From assembly GCA_947478005.1 (NCBI GenBank), contig CANJVG010000004.1, positions 3,092 to 67,091 of the forward strand: 64,000 bases of DNA, given 5' to 3'. The notes beneath the pieces were generated by a model. The model did not search any database. It was not told where the DNA came from and saw only the letters and a program-made list of their open reading frames with translations. This document shows positions 49,178-56,579 of the stretch, piece by piece. Positions within the stretch are counted from its first letter, which is position 1. The number at the start of each line of letters is the position of its first letter. The translations under genes were made by a program, and so were the position numbers. This DNA is from Bacteroidota bacterium (GTDB lineage Bacteria > Bacteroidota > Bacteroidia > Chitinophagales > LD1).

Positions 49178-49869
49178 TCTGATTTGGTTTTGTATACCAA
49201 AGATATAAAAAGCACCCGAAGGTGTTATTCCCTTTGTAAACCTAAAAGTACGAGGAGCTTAGATATTTGACAAGGAAGATGGTGTTGCTATCATATTATG
49301 CATTCGAAAGTTTGGCTACGACCTTAAACATTGCAAATAAGCCGTTTATTCCGTGGGTTGGGCCTCTCATCCCATGGGGTGAGCTTCGTATTCTATGTAG
49401 TGAGACAATCAATGAATGGAATAAACATAAATTCAAGGTATTAGCTACTTAGGCTCAAATGGTCGGATTTGGGCTCGTTCTTGCCAAATCACAGATTTTT
49501 AGGTTGGCTATAAAGAATTTTTGCTCATACCTGAATGTGTGAATTTTGCAATTCTTCTTCAGAATTGTGTAATGGCGATGGTGCGCTCCGGCACACATTT
49601 GCACCCTTTCCGAGAGTTATGGATTTGGCCGTATTAAGCTAAAATTTTCGGCAGTTTAGCAAGGCCTATTGATGAATAAGAAACAAAACAAGTAACCAGT
49701 TTTTTTTCTGACAAAGAATATCATCAAAGGTGATTTTAATCATGCTATACTGTCTGTTAACGAAGGTTATTTGCTGTTGAAATTTATAGCGAAAGAAGAT
49801 GAATTTTTAGAGAAATTTTTTAAACGTCTTATCAAAATTTTAGTAACGATTTTTTCAAAAAACAACTTT

Positions 49870-51189
49870 ATGAAAAGAATTAAAAAGGGCTTTATCGCCA
49901 TCGCAGCCTCTGTAGGAATTATTCTATCCCTACCTTATTGCACCAGACATGATCAGGTGCTGGATACCACTCCACCGGTATTAGTTACTGATACTTTATA
50001 TTCTGTGCCCGGCACAGCTACTCTTCAGCCTCAGGGTCCCGGCCATGCATGGGATGGAAGTATTGAAAGTGTTTGGAACAATGCCCCAAAATTGCAGGTG
50101 AAGGCAGTAGTGCCTGATGTGCCTGTAGAATTTGATGGTTTTATCGGTAATTCTTCGGATGTAACTATCCAGTCATTATATGACGCTAACAATATTTACT
50201 ACTTAGTTGAATTTACCTCTCCAAGAGCTTATAATTCAAGCGCGCTTTGGTACTTTAACTCAACTACAAAACGTTGGGCTCAGGAAACAGGTGGCCCAGC
50301 CTTGAATACAGATGGCAGCTACCGTCCTCCTTTTCAACAAGACGGATTTACTTTTGCATGGAATATCGACCATTCTACACAGAAGTTTAACACATTAAGC
50401 TGCTACGCAACCTGTCATGAGAGAACAACCTGGGGAGCCGGCACAGCAACAGAAGGTGCTACCATGCACACCAACGGGCCAAACGAAAGATTGGACTGCT
50501 GGAGATGCCGCACTTTACAAGGAGGTGCGCTTAATCAGGCAAACGATGTTTGGATTGATGACGGAGCAGGTTCATATCCATCAGCAAGCGGTACTTTAGA
50601 TAAAAATCAATTCCACAACGATTGGCAAGAACGCAATGGAACAGCCTCTACAGTTCCTCCTGCACTTCGCTCACCGGGGTATGCTGCCGATGGTGGATTC
50701 ACCAATCGTCAATCGCTTCAATTAACAGGTACTACTGGTTCTACCAATAAAGTAAACGTTCCTATCTGGTTAGACCCTAATGGAAACTATACAGGCAGTC
50801 TGATTATGATATCAGATACTATGAGCAAATGCAAAAAAGTTACTGCTGTTGACACTTTTGGAGTACTTACTTTGGCTGATGGTTCAACCGTTGACCCTGC
50901 TACAGGAAGCGATTACAAACAAATCGGTTCTGGCAACGGTGCTAAATGTATTCCAAGCACCGTAGCCGATATTTACACCGGTAGCCGTGCTGATGTAACA
51001 ATGAATCAGTACTACACCGGTTCAAGTTGGAGAATGTTGTTTAAACGCGCCTTAAAAACTGCCGACACTCAAAATGATGTTGACTTCTCTCCCTTAGAAG
51101 ACTTGCCATTCGGTATTGGGGTGATGTTTATGGGTGCTAACGGACAGCATGCTATAGTTGCCGGTTTGACACAACACTTTAGAAAATAA
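49870..51189 (+). CDS. lipoprotein with EB_dh/DOMON-like (cytochrome c-552/DMSO-reductase gamma-like) heme-binding domain
   Basis: Start moved to the ATG at 49870. Lipobox LSLPYC. WDGSIESVWNNAPKLQV...DVTIQSLYDANNIYYLVEF...DGFTFAWN resembles the EB_dh domain pattern. Contains CYATCH. Confidence 0.45.
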   Translation: MKRIKKGFIAIAASVGIILSLPYCTRHDQVLDTTPPVLVTDTLYSVPGTATLQPQGPGHAWDGSIESVWNNAPKLQVKAVVPDVPVEFDGFIGNSSDVTIQSLYDANNIYYLVEFTSPRAYNSSALWYFNSTTKRWAQETGGPALNTDGSYRPPFQQDGFTFAWNIDHSTQKFNTLSCYATCHERTTWGAGTATEGATMHTNGPNERLDCWRCRTLQGGALNQANDVWIDDGAGSYPSASGTLDKNQFHNDWQERNGTASTVPPALRSPGYAADGGFTNRQSLQLTGTTGSTNKVNVPIWLDPNGNYTGSLIMISDTMSKCKKVTAVDTFGVLTLADGSTVDPATGSDYKQIGSGNGAKCIPSTVADIYTGSRADVTMNQYYTGSSWRMLFKRALKTADTQNDVDFSPLEDLPFGIGVMFMGANGQHAIVAGLTQHFRK

Positions 51190-51282
51190 GGAGGTTAACC
51201 ATTTGAAGATTTGAGGACCTGGTGCCTTAAATATGAAGGGGCAGAGGTCTTCAAATCTTCGAATCAAAACAACAACTTAATC

Positions 51283-51669
51283 ATGAGAAATATAAAAATA
51301 ACAGCGGTTATAATAGGCTTGTTGTTTATGGCAAGTTGTGTAAAAGACGACACGGTGATTATTCAGCCAGTGGTTACGAAAACAGTCTCTTTCAAAAAGG
51401 ACCTGGTTCCTCTTTTTACCAAAAACTGCGCTTTAGGTGGCTGTCATAATGATGGAGGTAAAGCACCGGTTTTAACCAGTGCTAAAGCTTATAATTCGTT
51501 GAAAGCCGATGCTGCCTATATCAATGTCAGCCATCCGGAAAACAGCGAACTATACCAGTTCTTAACCGGTAAGCTTAGCCCTGCAATGCCGATGGGAGCA
51601 AGTACTAACCCAGGTAACCTCAATGCCTATGTGCTGGCGTGGATAAAACAAGGTGCTAAAAACAATTAG
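51283..51669 (+). CDS. small lipoprotein with C-x4-CH motif
   Basis: Start moved to the ATG at 51283. Lipobox LFMASC. LVPLFTKNCALGGCHNDGG resembles planctomycete-type cytochrome-like (PSCyt) motifs, but the Cys spacing is x4, not x2. Confidence 0.4.
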   Translation: MRNIKITAVIIGLLFMASCVKDDTVIIQPVVTKTVSFKKDLVPLFTKNCALGGCHNDGGKAPVLTSAKAYNSLKADAAYINVSHPENSELYQFLTGKLSPAMPMGASTNPGNLNAYVLAWIKQGAKNN

Positions 51670-51695
51670 AATTCTAAACAACTAAAATCAGAAGT

Positions 51696-52643
51696 ATGAA
51701 AAATATGAAAATGAAAATGAGGCCACGCTTACAGCTTATGGCTATCTTTTTACTCCTTTCAGCGGGTGTGAACGGATTGTTGGCTGAGGGTGCGGTGGCT
51801 GATAGCACCGGAGCTAAACACTGTGGTAAGCTGATGGAGAAATTCCGGGCTATGAAACCCGTTAAATACACCTTTGACGACAACTATGTGTTGGACAATC
51901 AGAGTGTTATTGTAAACCGTAAAAAGTCTATCTCCTTCGACCTGCAACACCGGTTTGGTGTGGTTACTAATGGTTATAAAGATTTTCTGGGTATATTCAG
52001 TGCAGCCAATATACGTATTGGTATGAGCGGAGTGCCTTGCGATAATTTGGCCTTGGGTTGGGGATTTAATAAGTATAACCTGACTTGGGATTTTAACGGC
52101 AAATATGCGCTTATGCGTCAGTCGGAAAAAGGAAAAGGAATTTGGCCTTTGAGCATTACCGTGTTCGGAAATATAGCGGTAGATTCACGCAATAAGAAGA
52201 ACTTTGTTCGTGGGGTTGACCGTCTTTCCTACTTCGGACAGATTTTGATTGCCCGCAAGATAACAAAGCATTTCTCGCTACAGGTTGGAGCCGATGTTTC
52301 ATGGTTTAATAATGTAGAAGCCTACATCAATACCAAAGGTGAAATAATACCGAAGAGAAATAACGAGCACTTTGCTGTGTCTGTAATGGCGCGTTACAAA
52401 TTCACGGATAAGATTGGAATACTCATTAACTACGACCAACCGCTGACTAAGCACCTTACCGATAATCCTCACCCTAATTTAGGCATCGGTCTTGAGTTTG
52501 CTACAGCAGGCCACGACTTTCAGGTTACCTTCTCTAACTTCAGCTATTTAATTCCGCAGGTAAACAACTTCTATAATCAGAATGATTATAAGAAAGGGGC
52601 CTTCTGCATAGGGTTCAATATGTCGAGGTTGTGGTTATTGTAG
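51696..52643 (+). CDS. putative outer-membrane beta-barrel protein (DUF5777-like)
   Basis: 315 aa. Signal peptide, alternating hydrophobic beta-strand pattern, and a hydrophobic/aromatic-rich C-terminus (...MSRLWLL). The family name is from memory. Confidence 0.45.
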   Translation: MKNMKMKMRPRLQLMAIFLLLSAGVNGLLAEGAVADSTGAKHCGKLMEKFRAMKPVKYTFDDNYVLDNQSVIVNRKKSISFDLQHRFGVVTNGYKDFLGIFSAANIRIGMSGVPCDNLALGWGFNKYNLTWDFNGKYALMRQSEKGKGIWPLSITVFGNIAVDSRNKKNFVRGVDRLSYFGQILIARKITKHFSLQVGADVSWFNNVEAYINTKGEIIPKRNNEHFAVSVMARYKFTDKIGILINYDQPLTKHLTDNPHPNLGIGLEFATAGHDFQVTFSNFSYLIPQVNNFYNQNDYKKGAFCIGFNMSRLWLL

Positions 52644-52752
52644 TTTAAAAAGAGAATTCAGCCTCCGGCCATTGCTCTCAAAAGTTCCTCTCACAATCGG
52701 TGAGGGGGACTTTTAAGAACCTACCACCAATCACCTTTAAAAATCAGGTATC

Positions 52753-53691
52753 ATGGAATCAGATAAATTTTCACGGAAGGATTTTATAAAATTCACTGCT
52801 GTAACAAGTGCCATCACGGCTTTATACAGTTCACCGCTTGGAGTAGGAGCAGAAGGTGCTGCCAAGGCAGGTGAAAAAGTGAAAGTACTTACCATTGATG
52901 GAAAATTAATGGAAGTGGACAAAGCCTCTCTTACGCTTTCTACTCAATCTCTCAGCGAGCAAACCAACGTCAATAAATTGAAGGCAAGGGAAGGTGTGAA
53001 AGGACGTAAATGGGTAATGGTCATCGACCTAGCCCGTTGCAAACATGCTTTAGCTTGTCAACGGGCATGTAACAAACACCACGATATGCCTGAAGACCCT
53101 GCCTATTTGAATGTGTATGAAATGAAAGATGCCCCAGACACTGCCCCGTACTGGATGCCCAAAACATGCTTCCACTGTGACCGTCCGGCTTGTGTATCGG
53201 TTTGTCCTGTAGATGCCACCTTTAAGCGTGAGGATGGAATTGTGTTGATTGATAACGAACGGTGTATCGGTTGTCGGTTCTGTATGGCAGCCTGCCCTTA
53301 CTCTACCCGAGTATTTAACTGGAATGAACCCGAACAGAAAATAGATATACTAAACATGGCCTATGACCCCGAATTAGGCCTGCCGAGAAAAATGGGAACT
53401 GTAGAGAAATGTGATTTCTGTCCCGATATGCTTTCCATTGGCAAACTTACACCATGTGCAGAAGCCTGCCCTAACGGAGTTTATTTTGTAGGCGACAAGA
53501 ATGAAGATACTGTAACCAATGGAAGCGAAACTTTCCGTTTTTCTGAATTGGTTAAGAATAAAGCCGGATATCGCTATATGGAGGATTTGGGCACGGAACC
53601 CAGTGTGTATTATCTACCAGCAGTTGACAGAATGGTTCCGTTTAACGAAACCGATAAGCAACTGGATGAAAAGGTAGACGGCAAAAAATAA
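52753..53691 (+). CDS. Tat-exported 4Fe-4S ferredoxin-type subunit (NrfC/PsrB/DsrO-like)
   Basis: 312 aa. Tat-like SRKDFIKF plus a hydrophobic region. Cys groups: CKHALACQRAC, CFHCDRPACVSVCP, CIGCRFCMAACP, CDFCPDM...CAEACP. Confidence 0.8.
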   Translation: MESDKFSRKDFIKFTAVTSAITALYSSPLGVGAEGAAKAGEKVKVLTIDGKLMEVDKASLTLSTQSLSEQTNVNKLKAREGVKGRKWVMVIDLARCKHALACQRACNKHHDMPEDPAYLNVYEMKDAPDTAPYWMPKTCFHCDRPACVSVCPVDATFKREDGIVLIDNERCIGCRFCMAACPYSTRVFNWNEPEQKIDILNMAYDPELGLPRKMGTVEKCDFCPDMLSIGKLTPCAEACPNGVYFVGDKNEDTVTNGSETFRFSELVKNKAGYRYMEDLGTEPSVYYLPAVDRMVPFNETDKQLDEKVDGKK

Positions 53692-53709
53692 CATTAAATC
53701 TAAAATCAA

Positions 53710-55935
53710 ATGGAAGCCCAAATTAGCATAGAAGAGCTCACCAGAGATCTTCAGCCCAGAAAGTTCGGAATCAGCGGTCAGTTATGGACAGCACTTTTGT
53801 GTGTGGTCATTCTGAATGGATTGGTTTCGTATTATTTTCAGTTAAGAGATGGTCTTTGCATTACCGGCATGAGCAACTCGGTAAGTTGGGGTATTTATAT
53901 TTCGAATTTCGTGTTTTTCGTAGCCATCAGCCTTGTAGGCTCGCTTATTAGTGCCATTCTGAAACTGAGCAATGCTAAATGGAGTATTCCTCTTACCAGA
54001 ATTGCTGAAATAATCGCGGTTGCCAATATCGCCTTTGCCGGTCTTATTATCATTGTAGATATGGGCAGGCCTGACCGCATATTCAATCTCTTTACTCATG
54101 GTAGAATTCAGTCTCCAATTGTATGGGATGTATTGGTAGTAACCACTTATCTTGCTATCAGCACTCTTTTGTTATATATTCCTTTGCTTCCTGATTTGGC
54201 TATTCTTCGTGAAAATATGAAAGGATTACCTAAATGGCAGCACAGGTTGTACAGCATTCTCTCACTTGGATGGAAAGGCAGCGAAGAGCAATACGATATT
54301 TTACATAAATCGGTTAGAACCCTGGCCATTATTATCATACCGGTTGCTTTAGGTATTCACACAGTCACATCGTGGTTGTTTGCTTCTACACTTCGTGGAG
54401 GGTGGAACAGTACTAATTTTGGACCTTACTTCGTGGCTGGAGCGTTTGTTGTCGGGGCGGCATCGGTTATTTCACTGATGTTTGTGGCCAGAAGGCACTA
54501 TCAATTGGAAAAGTACATTACGGATGATTTGTTTGATAAAATGGGCAAATTGCTCGTTATGCTTTCCTTGATTTATACCTACTTTACTATTAACGAGTAC
54601 CTGACTCCGGCATTTAAGATGATGGGTGGAGAACGAGGCTTGATTGAAGATCTTTTTGTAGGAAATTTTGCACCGATGTTTTGGGGAGTACAGATATTCG
54701 GAGTACTTATTCCGGTAGTTGTTATGCTGTTCAAGAAAGGAAGAAAGCCATGGCCTTTATTTATAGTAGCTAATATGACTATAGTAGGCGCTTGGTTTAA
54801 GCGTTATCTGATTGTTATACCTACCTTGTTTCATCCTTATCTTCCAGCAGTTGAACGCAATGGCGTGCCGAAAGCAATTCAGTATATACCCACTTGGAAT
54901 GAATGGTCTATTACTCTTGCTTCACTGGCCGGCTCTCTGCTTATTATCACTATTCTATTCAGATATCTTCCCTTTATAAGTATGTGGGAAATTGCGGAAG
55001 AAGAAGGAATCGACCATGCACACATTAACCCTACTAAGATTAAATCCAGAACCGAAAAACTTATAAAAGTGGTACTCCTTCTGTTTCCGCTAACTATAGT
55101 AGGCAATACTTTGTTAGCGGCTGATAAGGCCTCGCCCAAATTGAGACTTACCTATATTAAGCATATGGGTGGTGCCTATGAAATCAAGGCTAAGGCTTTT
55201 GTGAAAAAGGGAAAGGAAATAACCCCTTGTGCAGGTGCTACCATTGGTTTTTATACGGATGCTGATTATGCAAATGTTTTTGGTAAACAAACCGCTGATG
55301 AGGAAGGACAGACTACATTGCTGATGGACGATAAAGATGCGAATAGATTTAAAGACTCTGCAGGTCATTATAAGTTTTATAGTCGAGTAGAGGAGGATAG
55401 CAAATATGAATCGCAGGAGGCAGATGTGTCTGCATTGAGCGCTGTCATCGATGTTAAACTTGAAAAAGAGAACGACTCCACAAAAACTGTCAAAGCTTCG
55501 GTAACATGTTTTGATGAATCTAACGGTAAGATGATTCCCGGGGTTAAAATACCTTTGAAATTCCTGGTAAAACGGGCAATAGGCTATCTCCCTTTTGGTG
55601 AGGAAATAAATTACACGAATGACTCCGGTCAGGTTGTTGTCAATTTCCCAAATGACATAAAGGGTGACAAAGATGGTAACCTGGTAATTGTAGTGAAGTT
55701 AGAGGAAGATGATAATTATGGTACGGTGCAAAATGAACAAATTATCGCATGGGGACAAAGAACTATGGCAGAAGATAATCCGATTGCAGCACGGTCACTG
55801 ATTGGATCTCGAAATAACGCACCTTGGTTTATGGTTATTGTTATAAACGCAATTTTGATTGGCATCTGGGGGTACCTGTGCTACATTGTTTATGGCTTAT
55901 TCAAAATCAAAAAACTGAGCAATATCAAAAGTTAG
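53710..55935 (+). CDS. NrfD/PsrC-family polytopic membrane subunit fused to ~300-aa C-terminal extension
   Basis: 741 aa. Roughly the first 440 aa are polytopic and NrfD-like. After that come an extra TM helix, two beta-sandwich-like soluble segments and a final TM helix (WFMVIVINAILIGIWGYLCYIVYGLF). Confidence 0.7.
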   Translation: MEAQISIEELTRDLQPRKFGISGQLWTALLCVVILNGLVSYYFQLRDGLCITGMSNSVSWGIYISNFVFFVAISLVGSLISAILKLSNAKWSIPLTRIAEIIAVANIAFAGLIIIVDMGRPDRIFNLFTHGRIQSPIVWDVLVVTTYLAISTLLLYIPLLPDLAILRENMKGLPKWQHRLYSILSLGWKGSEEQYDILHKSVRTLAIIIIPVALGIHTVTSWLFASTLRGGWNSTNFGPYFVAGAFVVGAASVISLMFVARRHYQLEKYITDDLFDKMGKLLVMLSLIYTYFTINEYLTPAFKMMGGERGLIEDLFVGNFAPMFWGVQIFGVLIPVVVMLFKKGRKPWPLFIVANMTIVGAWFKRYLIVIPTLFHPYLPAVERNGVPKAIQYIPTWNEWSITLASLAGSLLIITILFRYLPFISMWEIAEEEGIDHAHINPTKIKSRTEKLIKVVLLLFPLTIVGNTLLAADKASPKLRLTYIKHMGGAYEIKAKAFVKKGKEITPCAGATIGFYTDADYANVFGKQTADEEGQTTLLMDDKDANRFKDSAGHYKFYSRVEEDSKYESQEADVSALSAVIDVKLEKENDSTKTVKASVTCFDESNGKMIPGVKIPLKFLVKRAIGYLPFGEEINYTNDSGQVVVNFPNDIKGDKDGNLVIVVKLEEDDNYGTVQNEQIIAWGQRTMAEDNPIAARSLIGSRNNAPWFMVIVINAILIGIWGYLCYIVYGLFKIKKLSNIKS

Positions 55936-56041
55936 TAGTTTAAGAATCGCGTGCTTTGGTGGCACGATACTTGACTTAACTCTACGCTTTATTATATCCA
56001 TATAATTAAGACTATTTTCTAACTCAAAAACAATAAACAAA

Positions 56042-56452
56042 ATGAAAAAATCAATCAAAGTAATGGTAGTCTCCTTTTCAGGAGTAGTTGTATTAGGTCT
56101 TCTCTCTTTCTCTTATGCAGGAGGAGAATGGAAAGTGCCTGATACCGACAAGAACGTTAAGAATGCCGTGAAATCAGATAAGGCAAGTATAGATGCCGGT
56201 GCTGTTTTATATGCTAAGCATTGCAAATCTTGCCATGGTAAAACAGGGGAAGGAGATGGTCCCAAAGCAACAGAGTTAAAAGGCGAACTTAGTGATTTTA
56301 CGCAGAGTAAATTTCAAAGTCAAACGGATGGCGCACTTTTCTACAAGATTAATAAGGGAAGAGATGAAATGCCTTCCTTTGCCAAGAAAATAAGCGAGGA
56401 AGATGATGTTTGGAGCATCATTAACTATATGCGCACATTCGGAAAGAAATAA
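56042..56452 (+). CDS. class I monoheme cytochrome c
   Basis: 136 aa. Signal peptide, CKSCHG heme motif, and a distal Met context (GRDEMPSF). Confidence 0.85.
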   Translation: MKKSIKVMVVSFSGVVVLGLLSFSYAGGEWKVPDTDKNVKNAVKSDKASIDAGAVLYAKHCKSCHGKTGEGDGPKATELKGELSDFTQSKFQSQTDGALFYKINKGRDEMPSFAKKISEEDDVWSIINYMRTFGKK

Positions 56453-56467
56453 CCTTTCGATTTATTA

Positions 56468-56506
56468 AACGCCATCCCTTTTTATGGGGGATGGCGTTTG
56501 CTTTTT
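56468..56506 (+). terminator. rho-independent terminator closing the 49.9-56.5 kb gene group
   Basis: AACGCCATCCC-tttttat-GGGGATGGCGTT followed by TGCTTTTT. Confidence 0.8.
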
Positions 56507-56579
56507 ATAAGGACTATTGATTTTCAAATAGCTTTGTAACATTGCGTTGAGCAGAAATAATTCTGTTTAGTTGAACTCT

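Follow-up and report, generated by a model that had tools for sequence, protein, structure and literature searches.

A conserved Bacteroidota gene cluster in which a pared-down NrfD-type quinone module adjoins genes for putative heme lipoproteins and a predicted outer-membrane barrel

Within a window of 64,000 nucleotides from a Bacteroidota bacterium (contig CANJVG010000004.1 of assembly GCA_947478005.1)—the window being the whole stretch of DNA analyzed, which stretch was detected in freshwater-lake DNA metagenomes—lies a plus-strand gene cluster that we believe, with moderate confidence, to represent a conserved and undescribed respiratory side-branch, in which two cooperating modules would make up a menaquinol-linked chain leading to outer-membrane hemes. 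The initial annotation of this DNA, made from the letters alone, had placed here six codirectional genes, all of which open reading frames (ORFs) proved to be present; and profile searches agreed with the families that it had named—an EB_dh lipoprotein, a CX4CH lipoprotein, a barrel, a four-cluster ferredoxin, NrfD, and a monoheme cytochrome c—the barrel being identified as DUF5777. The count of six holds for the ORFs, but the components number seven, since the fifth ORF comprises both NrfD and a further protein, here designated ext, which is encoded by a gene of its own everywhere else examined. The components, with sizes in amino acids (aa), are the following:

g1, 49870-51189, plus strand: EB_dh-fold lipoprotein, probable c-type cytochrome (439 aa; PF09459, E=1.5e-15)
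g2, 51283-51669, plus strand: small, putatively monoheme lipoprotein with a CX4CH and a distal Met-Pro motif (128 aa)
g3, 51696-52643, plus strand: 12-strand outer-membrane beta-barrel, DUF5777 (PF19089; 315 aa; E=7e-62)
g4, 52753-53691, plus strand: four-cluster ferredoxin, NrfC/PsrB/DsrO-like, predicted to be exported by twin-arginine translocation (Tat) (312 aa; Fer4_11, E=8.8e-18)
g5, N-terminal part, 53710-55020, plus strand: NrfD-family, ActC-like membrane quinone subunit (PF03916, E=1.9e-34)
g5, C-terminal part (ext), 55021-55935, plus strand: two beta-sandwich domains and a transmembrane anchor; own gene elsewhere
g6, 56042-56452, plus strand: class I monoheme cytochrome c with an N-terminal signal or anchor (136 aa; CKSCH and MP motifs)

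To place the cluster among its relatives, we used aligned g1 homologs to scan a genome collection, in which 65 loci were found; they were compared by means of tblastn searches with the window proteins and an all-against-all clustering of the ORFs of the loci. These belong mostly to Chitinophagaceae, Mucilaginibacter, Pedobacter, Sediminibacterium, Ferruginibacter, and unclassified Bacteroidota metagenome-assembled genomes (MAGs); and one carrier, Mucilaginibacter frigoritolerans ATCC BAA-1854 (locus L021), is a cultured strain. Homologs of g2 occurred in 50 of the 65 loci, of g3 in 51, of the cytochrome c in 38, of NrfD and ext in 36, and of NrfC in 35; any other group of homologous ORFs was found in 14 loci at the most. 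Most of the loci without NrfCD end at contig ends, only L047 having at least 8.6 kb on each side that is free of those genes, and searches seeded independently with DUF5777 and with ext led to the same gene set in every context inspected. The gene set is thus conserved, its members being found all together in about 40 loci. The lack of a catalytic subunit, to which the initial annotation had drawn attention, was borne out as well: in the window, about 6 kb to each side of the cluster are free of molybdopterin and multiheme genes, and such genes are not recurrent in the approximately 40 homologous loci; a second NrfD gene is absent from the window flanks and, like DsrM-, DsrK-, and DsrJ-like genes, from the recurrent neighbors of the 65 loci.

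The order of the genes is informative in itself. If the genes are abbreviated as E (EB_dh), s (small cytochrome), B (barrel), C (NrfC), D (NrfD), x (ext), and c (cytochrome c), at least six arrangements can be distinguished: CDx-EsB-c, CDxc-EsB, EsB-c-CDx, EsB-CDx-c (the window), a convergent one in L001—the closest relative, at 82% identity—and a divergent one in L074. In every locus of the Chitinophagales/Sphingobacteriales type, E-s-B and C-D-x are each contiguous and constant in order, and the place of g6 relative to those two blocks differs between genomes. That the adjacency of the blocks outlasts their rearrangement into at least six orders constitutes strong evidence for two units that are functionally coupled yet separable. 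One might alternatively suppose that two unrelated operons had come to lie side by side by chance, or that the first three genes served for heme or iron acquisition, and could point to the strong hairpin between the blocks (52680-52714), to their convergence in L001 and divergence in L074, and to the presence of the first block without NrfCD in L047 and in Bacteroidales loci. We consider that explanation very improbable, because the two halves—whose co-occurrence was essential to the initial annotation—adjoin in about 40 loci from several families and in six arrangements, with the cytochrome c gene moving between them, which pattern indicates coupling; with respect to acquisition, no gene for a TonB-dependent receptor, an ABC transporter, or heme degradation is recurrent nearby, and the covalent heme motifs, along with the heme lyase borne by some clusters, indicate cytochromes rather than heme carriers.

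A natural gene fusion ties ext to the quinone subunit. The g5 ORF, which starts 18 nt after the end of g4, encodes 741 aa, with the NrfD domain at residues 52-373 (120.2 bits against a Pfam cutoff of 25.8). Elsewhere, NrfD proteins of 434-490 aa are followed by a separate ext gene of 201-347 aa, mostly 290-330, which separation was seen in 35 of 35 other loci and in L067-L075, the fused form being restricted, among more than 40 loci, to the lineage of the window. In the closest relatives NrfD ends with ...EKL and a stop codon before the next gene; the window has no such stop and reads into what was formerly the signal peptide of ext. An assembly artefact could be ruled out and the fusion taken as real, since the junction is identical in contigs from four runs of two studies; and such a fusion argues, as evidence of the Rosetta-stone type, that the NrfD and ext proteins associate. 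The separate ext proteins begin with a signal peptide, continue with two beta-sandwich-like domains, and end in a membrane anchor; they belong to no Pfam family, and a sequence search of the PDB gave marginal matches only (E>=0.002). The former signal peptide within g5 keeps an LLA-AD site, so that signal peptidase might still split the fused product into two chains.

As to the remainder of that block, g4 matches Fer4_11 with 64.8 bits and has 15 Cys in four groups. Its NCBIfam scores—185.2 bits for DsrO (cutoff 200), 131 for TtrB, 129 for QrcC, and 119.5 for NrfC (cutoff 377.6)—are all below the equivalog cutoffs, and its best PDB matches are PsrB (2vpw_B, 2e-25) and ArrB (6cz7_B). The first Cys group, C-x5-C-x3-C, contains three Cys in the window and in most homologs, which number suggests that one of the four clusters would be a [3Fe-4S] center. 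A conserved segment of about 50 aa (VKxLxxDGxxxExD), absent from PsrB, follows the signal peptide of g4. The sole PDB matches of g5 are the ActC chains 8k9e_C, 6f0k_C, 6lod_C, and 6btm_C (1e-46 to 3e-45, residues 14-434), and its NCBIfam scores for DsrP (134.9 bits, cutoff 350) and QrcD (66 bits) both remain under cutoff; judged from these sequence matches, the NrfD core is ActC-like. The g6 product matches Cytochrome_CBB3 (E=1.2e-12) and Cytochrom_C (E=3.1e-10).

By gene content and scores, the cluster contains an NrfD gene (PF03916) next to that of its iron-sulfur (FeS) protein, an NrfC/PsrB-type ferredoxin; it does not qualify as an alternative complex III (ActC excepted), a DsrMKJOP, or an NrfABCD system. 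With the alternative complex III of F. johnsoniae (6btm) and R. marinus (6f0k) it shares the ActC-like NrfD core, a periplasmic four-cluster FeS subunit with three Cys in the first motif, and a monoheme cytochrome c, as well as a small additional subunit anchored in the membrane. The cluster differs, however, in having neither the pentaheme ActA nor the second NrfD-like subunit ActF; in its 312-aa g4, which lacks the pterin-like B1 domain of an ActB of some 950-1040 aa; in a cytochrome that is not a lipoprotein and an ext without a Pfam or PDB counterpart; and in its partners, namely the outer-membrane barrel and the EB_dh and CX4CH cytochromes. The NrfCD, DsrOP, and QrcCD dimers likewise combine a Tat ferredoxin with a cofactor-less NrfD-family subunit, DsrO and DsrP giving the best-scoring models, but the cluster has no NrfAB, DsrMKJ, or QrcAB, and neither ext nor outer-membrane partners are known in those systems. 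According to Duarte et al., an NrfCD-type dimer may work alone towards soluble periplasmic proteins (PMC6303296), for which reason the statement in the initial annotation that in the known families FeS/NrfD pairs work with a molybdenum or multiheme partner was too strong. NrfCD-type modules without a bound catalytic subunit are, in other words, already recognized; what is new here is an outer-membrane half without a characterized counterpart, joined to an inner half that is a minimal module of the alternative complex III, DsrOP, or NrfCD type. A literature search found no description of the cluster, nor does the NrfD review PMC8076601 contain such a group.

These resemblances lend themselves to a different interpretation, which we regard as rather unlikely: that NrfC, NrfD, ext, and the cytochrome c constitute a general minimal quinol:cytochrome c oxidoreductase feeding terminal enzymes encoded elsewhere—clients such as a cbb3 or caa3 oxidase or a nitrite, nitric oxide (NO), or N2O reductase—with the EB_dh protein acting as a periplasmic shuttle like the NirB c552 of P. 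stutzeri (nirSTBM), and the barrel being an anchor or unrelated. That the structural matches of the NrfD core are to ActC only, that g6 resembles cbb3 subunit III and carriers of the c6 and c551 types, and that FNR-like, NarL-type, and Rrf2 regulators flank the clusters would all be in keeping with a feeder of this sort, as would the setting of the nearest described counterparts of g1. In Azospira suillum the EbdC-like Dsui_0143, a heme b/c protein, has a NapC-like quinol dehydrogenase as its neighbor; the homolog NirB belongs to the nitrite-reduction gene cluster of P. stutzeri, an atypical CWXXCH occurring in both (PMC3884062); thus CX3CH-bearing, EbdC-like proteins do sit in chains with quinol dehydrogenases of the NapC/NirT type. 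Compared by description only, those two proteins are, like g1, stand-alone EB_dh proteins with a CX3CH-type motif that are accompanied by small cytochromes and by no molybdoenzyme, but they also have a canonical CXXCH, a NapC/NirT-type tetraheme partner, and a place in perchlorate or nitrite clusters, whereas g1 has the CX3CH alone and is a lipoprotein with a large insertion (439 aa), accompanied by a barrel. The feeder interpretation is weakened by the absence of any recurrent nir, nor, nos, or oxidase gene around the approximately 40 loci; by the constant succession of EB_dh, small cytochrome, and barrel, which association would be needless for a soluble shuttle; and by the duplication of extra small-cytochrome and barrel pairs beside the cluster. 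Such extra pairs, without EB_dh, were observed in L013, L025, L033, L034, L036, L045, and L058. Two NrfC-NrfD-ext sets are present in L005, L016, L039, and L057, so that the modules duplicate as units.

In the other block, g1 scored 58.3 bits against PF09459 (cutoff 33.3), and its AlphaFold2 model (mean predicted local distance difference test, pLDDT, of 64) exhibits the EB_dh fold, with NxrC (7b04_C, 5e-9) and EbdC (2ivf_C, 2.8e-6) as best Foldseek matches and CBM9 also among them, in keeping with the EB_dh-like character given to g1 in the initial annotation. That annotation had nevertheless likened g1 to the heme-b gamma subunit of the type II DMSO reductases, which likeness needs amending. 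No molybdopterin alpha subunit accompanies the fold in any locus, and the motif C178-X3-C182-H183 (CYATCH) is kept in 66 of 68 g1-homolog ORFs, down to identities of 24-29%, the other two being cut by contig ends. The presence of CX3CH in every complete homolog, together with the ResB- and CcsA-like genes of system II heme attachment that in the Bacteroidales loci lie between the EB_dh and small cytochrome genes, suggests that g1 is probably a c-type cytochrome with a covalent heme and not a heme-b protein. At position 199 one clade has Met and most of the others have His; all 16 sequences of an alignment share H427, and with the lipobox Cys24 goes a conserved CT(K/R)xDQVL following it. In a library of 1.8 billion proteins clustered at 50%, we encountered only 162 g1-related representatives at E<=0.001, and 22 at E<=1e-30, by which numbers the family appears compact and mainly confined to the Bacteroidota. 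The Bacteroidales/Paludibacter MAGs possess a variant without NrfCD (L061:9327-15894, L062, L063) in which the order is Rrf2, EB_dh (CX3CH), ResB-like, CcsA-like, a small CXXCH lipoprotein, DUF5777, YceI, and a tRNA_anti-like OB-fold protein.

The heme motif of g2 is CALGGCH (CX4CH). Its profile matches, to cytochrome c and LIC11213, are weak, but CX4CH and a later MP motif are conserved across 58 g2 homologs (at the 90%/60% consensus level) in a layout that resembles a PSCyt1-type cytochrome c domain; from this motif pattern we take g2 for a putative monoheme cytochrome c. Lipoprotein signal peptides are present in g1 as well as in g2. Experiments have defined the surface-export signal of Bacteroidota as C-X-K-(D/E)2-X (PMC5080379), to which the mature N-terminus of the window g2 (CVKDD) is an exact fit, and Lys is found at position +3 in 58 of 58 g2 homologs; the strict motif, however, is present in only 3 of those 58, and the window g1 (CTRHDQ) does not fit, some of its homologs having CTKDDQ. 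Surface exposure of the two lipoproteins is consequently possible, though unproven.

The g3 product matches DUF5777 with 209 bits, and its AlphaFold2 model (pLDDT 85.5) has 12 long strands, with NanC (2wjr; E=1.2e-7, TMt 0.69) as the best Foldseek match and the 12-strand COG4313, FapF, and NalP barrels among the others. The DUF5777 consensus C-terminus, RLWNF, is a typical beta-signal of outer-membrane proteins, the window g3 ending in RLWLL. The searched library contained no paper mentioning DUF5777. Two His residues, H85 (QHRFG) and H273 (GHxFQ), are invariant in barrel strands 1 and 11; we considered them as a bis-His heme site and set that idea aside, as the alternation of residues along the strands suggests that both would face outwards at opposite rims.

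The genes for the small cytochrome and the barrel invariably adjoin and are often duplicated as a pair, and no fused cytochrome-barrel form is among the 120 DUF5777 homologs listed. We entertain, quite tentatively, the thought that g2 and g3 form a minimal two-piece outer-membrane electron gate, which gate, together with a CX3CH EB_dh protein that might be exposed on the surface, would permit an exchange of respiratory electrons with the cell exterior and so make up a new class of extracellular electron transfer, one without multiheme cytochromes; the driver would be the pared-down quinol module resembling alternative complex III, the hosts aerobic or microaerophilic freshwater and soil Bacteroidota, and the acceptors or donors such as humics, iron, or a surface enzyme. 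Porin-cytochrome conduits are known in the form of MtrCAB, the Geobacter Pcc/Ext systems, and the fused Cyc2, with barrels of 16 strands in Cyc2 and 26 in MtrB. The cluster shares with them a barrel gene beside lipoprotein cytochromes and a link to an inner-membrane quinol dehydrogenase, but differs in its 12-strand NanC-like barrel, its separate monoheme cytochromes, and its lack of a multiheme wire.

Returning to the respiratory side-branch that we favor, we propose that in the inner membrane the ActC-like NrfD would exchange electrons and protons with menaquinone and hand the electrons to the Tat-exported ferredoxin, probably containing one [3Fe-4S] and three [4Fe-4S] clusters, with ext as a membrane-anchored periplasmic protein of two beta-sandwich domains and the monoheme cytochrome c completing the module. 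The whole would be a pared-down relative of alternative complex III: a quinol:cytochrome c oxidoreductase without the pterin-like or the pentaheme subunit. The outer-membrane module would consist of the EB_dh lipoprotein with its covalent heme (CX3CH), the CX4CH monoheme lipoprotein, and the 12-strand DUF5777 barrel. If the parts make contact and the heme motifs are occupied, electrons would pass from menaquinol through NrfD, the FeS clusters, and the cytochrome c to the outer-membrane heme lipoproteins, and from there to an acceptor that would lie at the outer membrane or close to it. The flow might also be reversed; menaquinol oxidation seems the likelier direction by analogy with alternative complex III and from the FNR-type regulation. 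Crp/FNR-family regulators that have the motif C-x2-C-x4-C-x5-6-C at the N-terminus lie beside the cluster in seven loci, and homologous clusters are also flanked by NarL-type response regulators with kinases and, in the Bacteroidales, by an Rrf2 protein with three Cys; those regulators and the YceI neighbors are compatible with a respiratory role responsive to redox conditions, oxygen, or NO. YceI-like lipoproteins adjoin the cluster in 10 loci (L034:5722-6510 and nine more) and also in L069, L070, and L074; they have in common with the EB_dh lipoprotein a mature N-terminus CT(H/K)xDQVL, perhaps a shared signal for sorting or docking. Two unannotated genes, one of about 453 and one of about 201 aa, accompany the YceI gene in L069 and L070.

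Several observations weigh against such a chain. No terminal enzyme or substrate was identified for it, and the sequencing runs carrying the stretch are lake DNA metagenomes only, with no RNA run among them, so that they contain no evidence of cotranscription. The Tat motif of g4 reads SRKDFI in the window, with RK where the homologs have the RR of SRRxFL. The pLDDT of the g1 model falls below 50 at residues 175-201, around the heme motif, so that the axial ligands can be named only as candidates; and some EB_dh homologs are solo or have no NrfCD (L020, L022, L047, L051-55, L061-63). A conduit across the outer membrane, moreover, is not supported structurally, for a barrel of 12 strands leaves too little room for a cytochrome to be enclosed in the manner of MtrB; consequently, of the quinol-linked conduit to the periplasm or outer membrane put forward in the initial annotation, we retain as plausible that it reaches the outer membrane, but not that it crosses it. 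Finally, the EB_dh/CX3CH domain is reused as the periplasmic sensor domain of histidine kinases and of GGDEF and HD-GYP proteins, from which reuse the heme of g1 may bind a ligand and not merely pass electrons. As an N-terminal and presumably periplasmic input, the domain was observed in P0286, P0298, P0307, P0315, P0321, P0334, P0357, P0362, P0378, and P0383, which proteins include histidine kinases, one GGDEF diguanylate cyclase, one HD-GYP-type protein, and one DUF835 protein. To judge by their motifs, these inputs look like a class of covalent-heme sensors, of which we found no description.

From this last point it is but a step to suppose that catalysis or ligand binding takes place at the EB_dh heme lipoprotein itself, or that this protein is a redox sensor, its reducing power coming via NrfCD and the cytochrome c, the system then being a quinol-driven reductase or detoxifier of, for example, NO, nitrite, peroxide, or chlorite. 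Ligand or redox sensing at the heme is implied by the service of CX3CH EB_dh as an input to kinases, diguanylate cyclases, and HD-GYP proteins; residue 199, a candidate axial ligand, alternates between Met and His by clade; solo EB_dh genes lie directly downstream of FNR-like regulators (L052, L055); and a three-Cys Rrf2 regulator adjoins the Bacteroidales version. With three candidate ligands conserved (H183, M/H199, H427), though, an open coordination site cannot be demonstrated; there is, furthermore, no similarity to the active sites of known heme enzymes, and the conserved small cytochrome and barrel would be left unexplained, so that we deem this explanation decidedly unlikely.

The noncoding elements of the cluster bear on its transcription:

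49178-49869, plus strand: long non-coding leader upstream of g1, with no ORF having a family match
51201-51264, plus strand: strong RNA hairpin in the g1-g2 gap (from the fold of 51190-51282)
52680-52714, plus strand: 15-bp hairpin in the g3-g4 gap, at the boundary of the two gene blocks (from its minimum free energy and z-score)
56466-56510, plus strand: intrinsic terminator at the end of the cluster (15-bp stem, then a U-run)

The closing terminator is as strong as the initial annotation had held it to be: a stem of 15 bp with 7 GC pairs and a 5-nt loop is followed by CTTTTTATAA, and the fold has -27.1 kcal/mol (z=-6.2). The hairpin near 52.7 kb, which had been called weak, in fact has a 15-bp stem (AAAAGUUCCUCUCAC-loop-GUGAGGGGGACUUUU), the minimum free energy of the region being -28.9 kcal/mol (z=-3.4), and may be a partial terminator or an attenuator. 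It coincides with the junction of the blocks, where all the other loci have their block boundary too; and the convergent (L001) and divergent (L074) orders indicate that each block can form a transcription unit by itself, in accordance with the earlier caveat that the first three genes could form a unit of their own. The g1-g2 gap (51190-51282) folds at -35.9 kcal/mol (z=-6.2), a stability equaled by none of 200 shuffles, into a hairpin of about 20 bp plus an inner stem with no U-run after it, which structure may be an element of mRNA processing or stability that sets the g1:g2 ratio; its overlap with a longer, TTG-started g2 ORF supports the ATG at 51283 as the true start of g2. The 690-bp leader gave no Rfam match at E<=0.1 and contains no FNR-box-like TTGAT-N4-ATCAA, the window-wide count of such sites being that expected by chance, and matches to sigma-70-like promoters do not exceed the expectation from shuffles. 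The leader also holds a 61-aa ORF (49267-49452) without support. No regulator gene was found in the window itself, and the flanks of the cluster have a housekeeping character—TamB, a DUF5808 peptide, YceG/MltG, a lipid A acyltransferase, PhoD, and a cargo protein of the type IX secretion system—with no redox enzyme genes among them.

Among the carbon degraders of lakes, soils, and bogs the Bacteroidota rank as major ones, and their respiratory chains beyond alternative complex III are poorly mapped. If the chain does end at the cell surface, the cluster would represent a form of extracellular electron transfer overlooked by marker-gene surveys, which surveys would miss it because they look for multiheme cytochromes; if the chain ends in the periplasm instead, the cluster would still add to the NrfCD module family both a client and an accessory subunit that are new. 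The CX3CH EB_dh cytochromes, so far mentioned only in passing as far as we found, point in either case to a wide class of covalent-heme EB_dh domains that also serve as sensor inputs; and, since the cultured strain M. frigoritolerans ATCC BAA-1854 carries the cluster, the system is open to testing.

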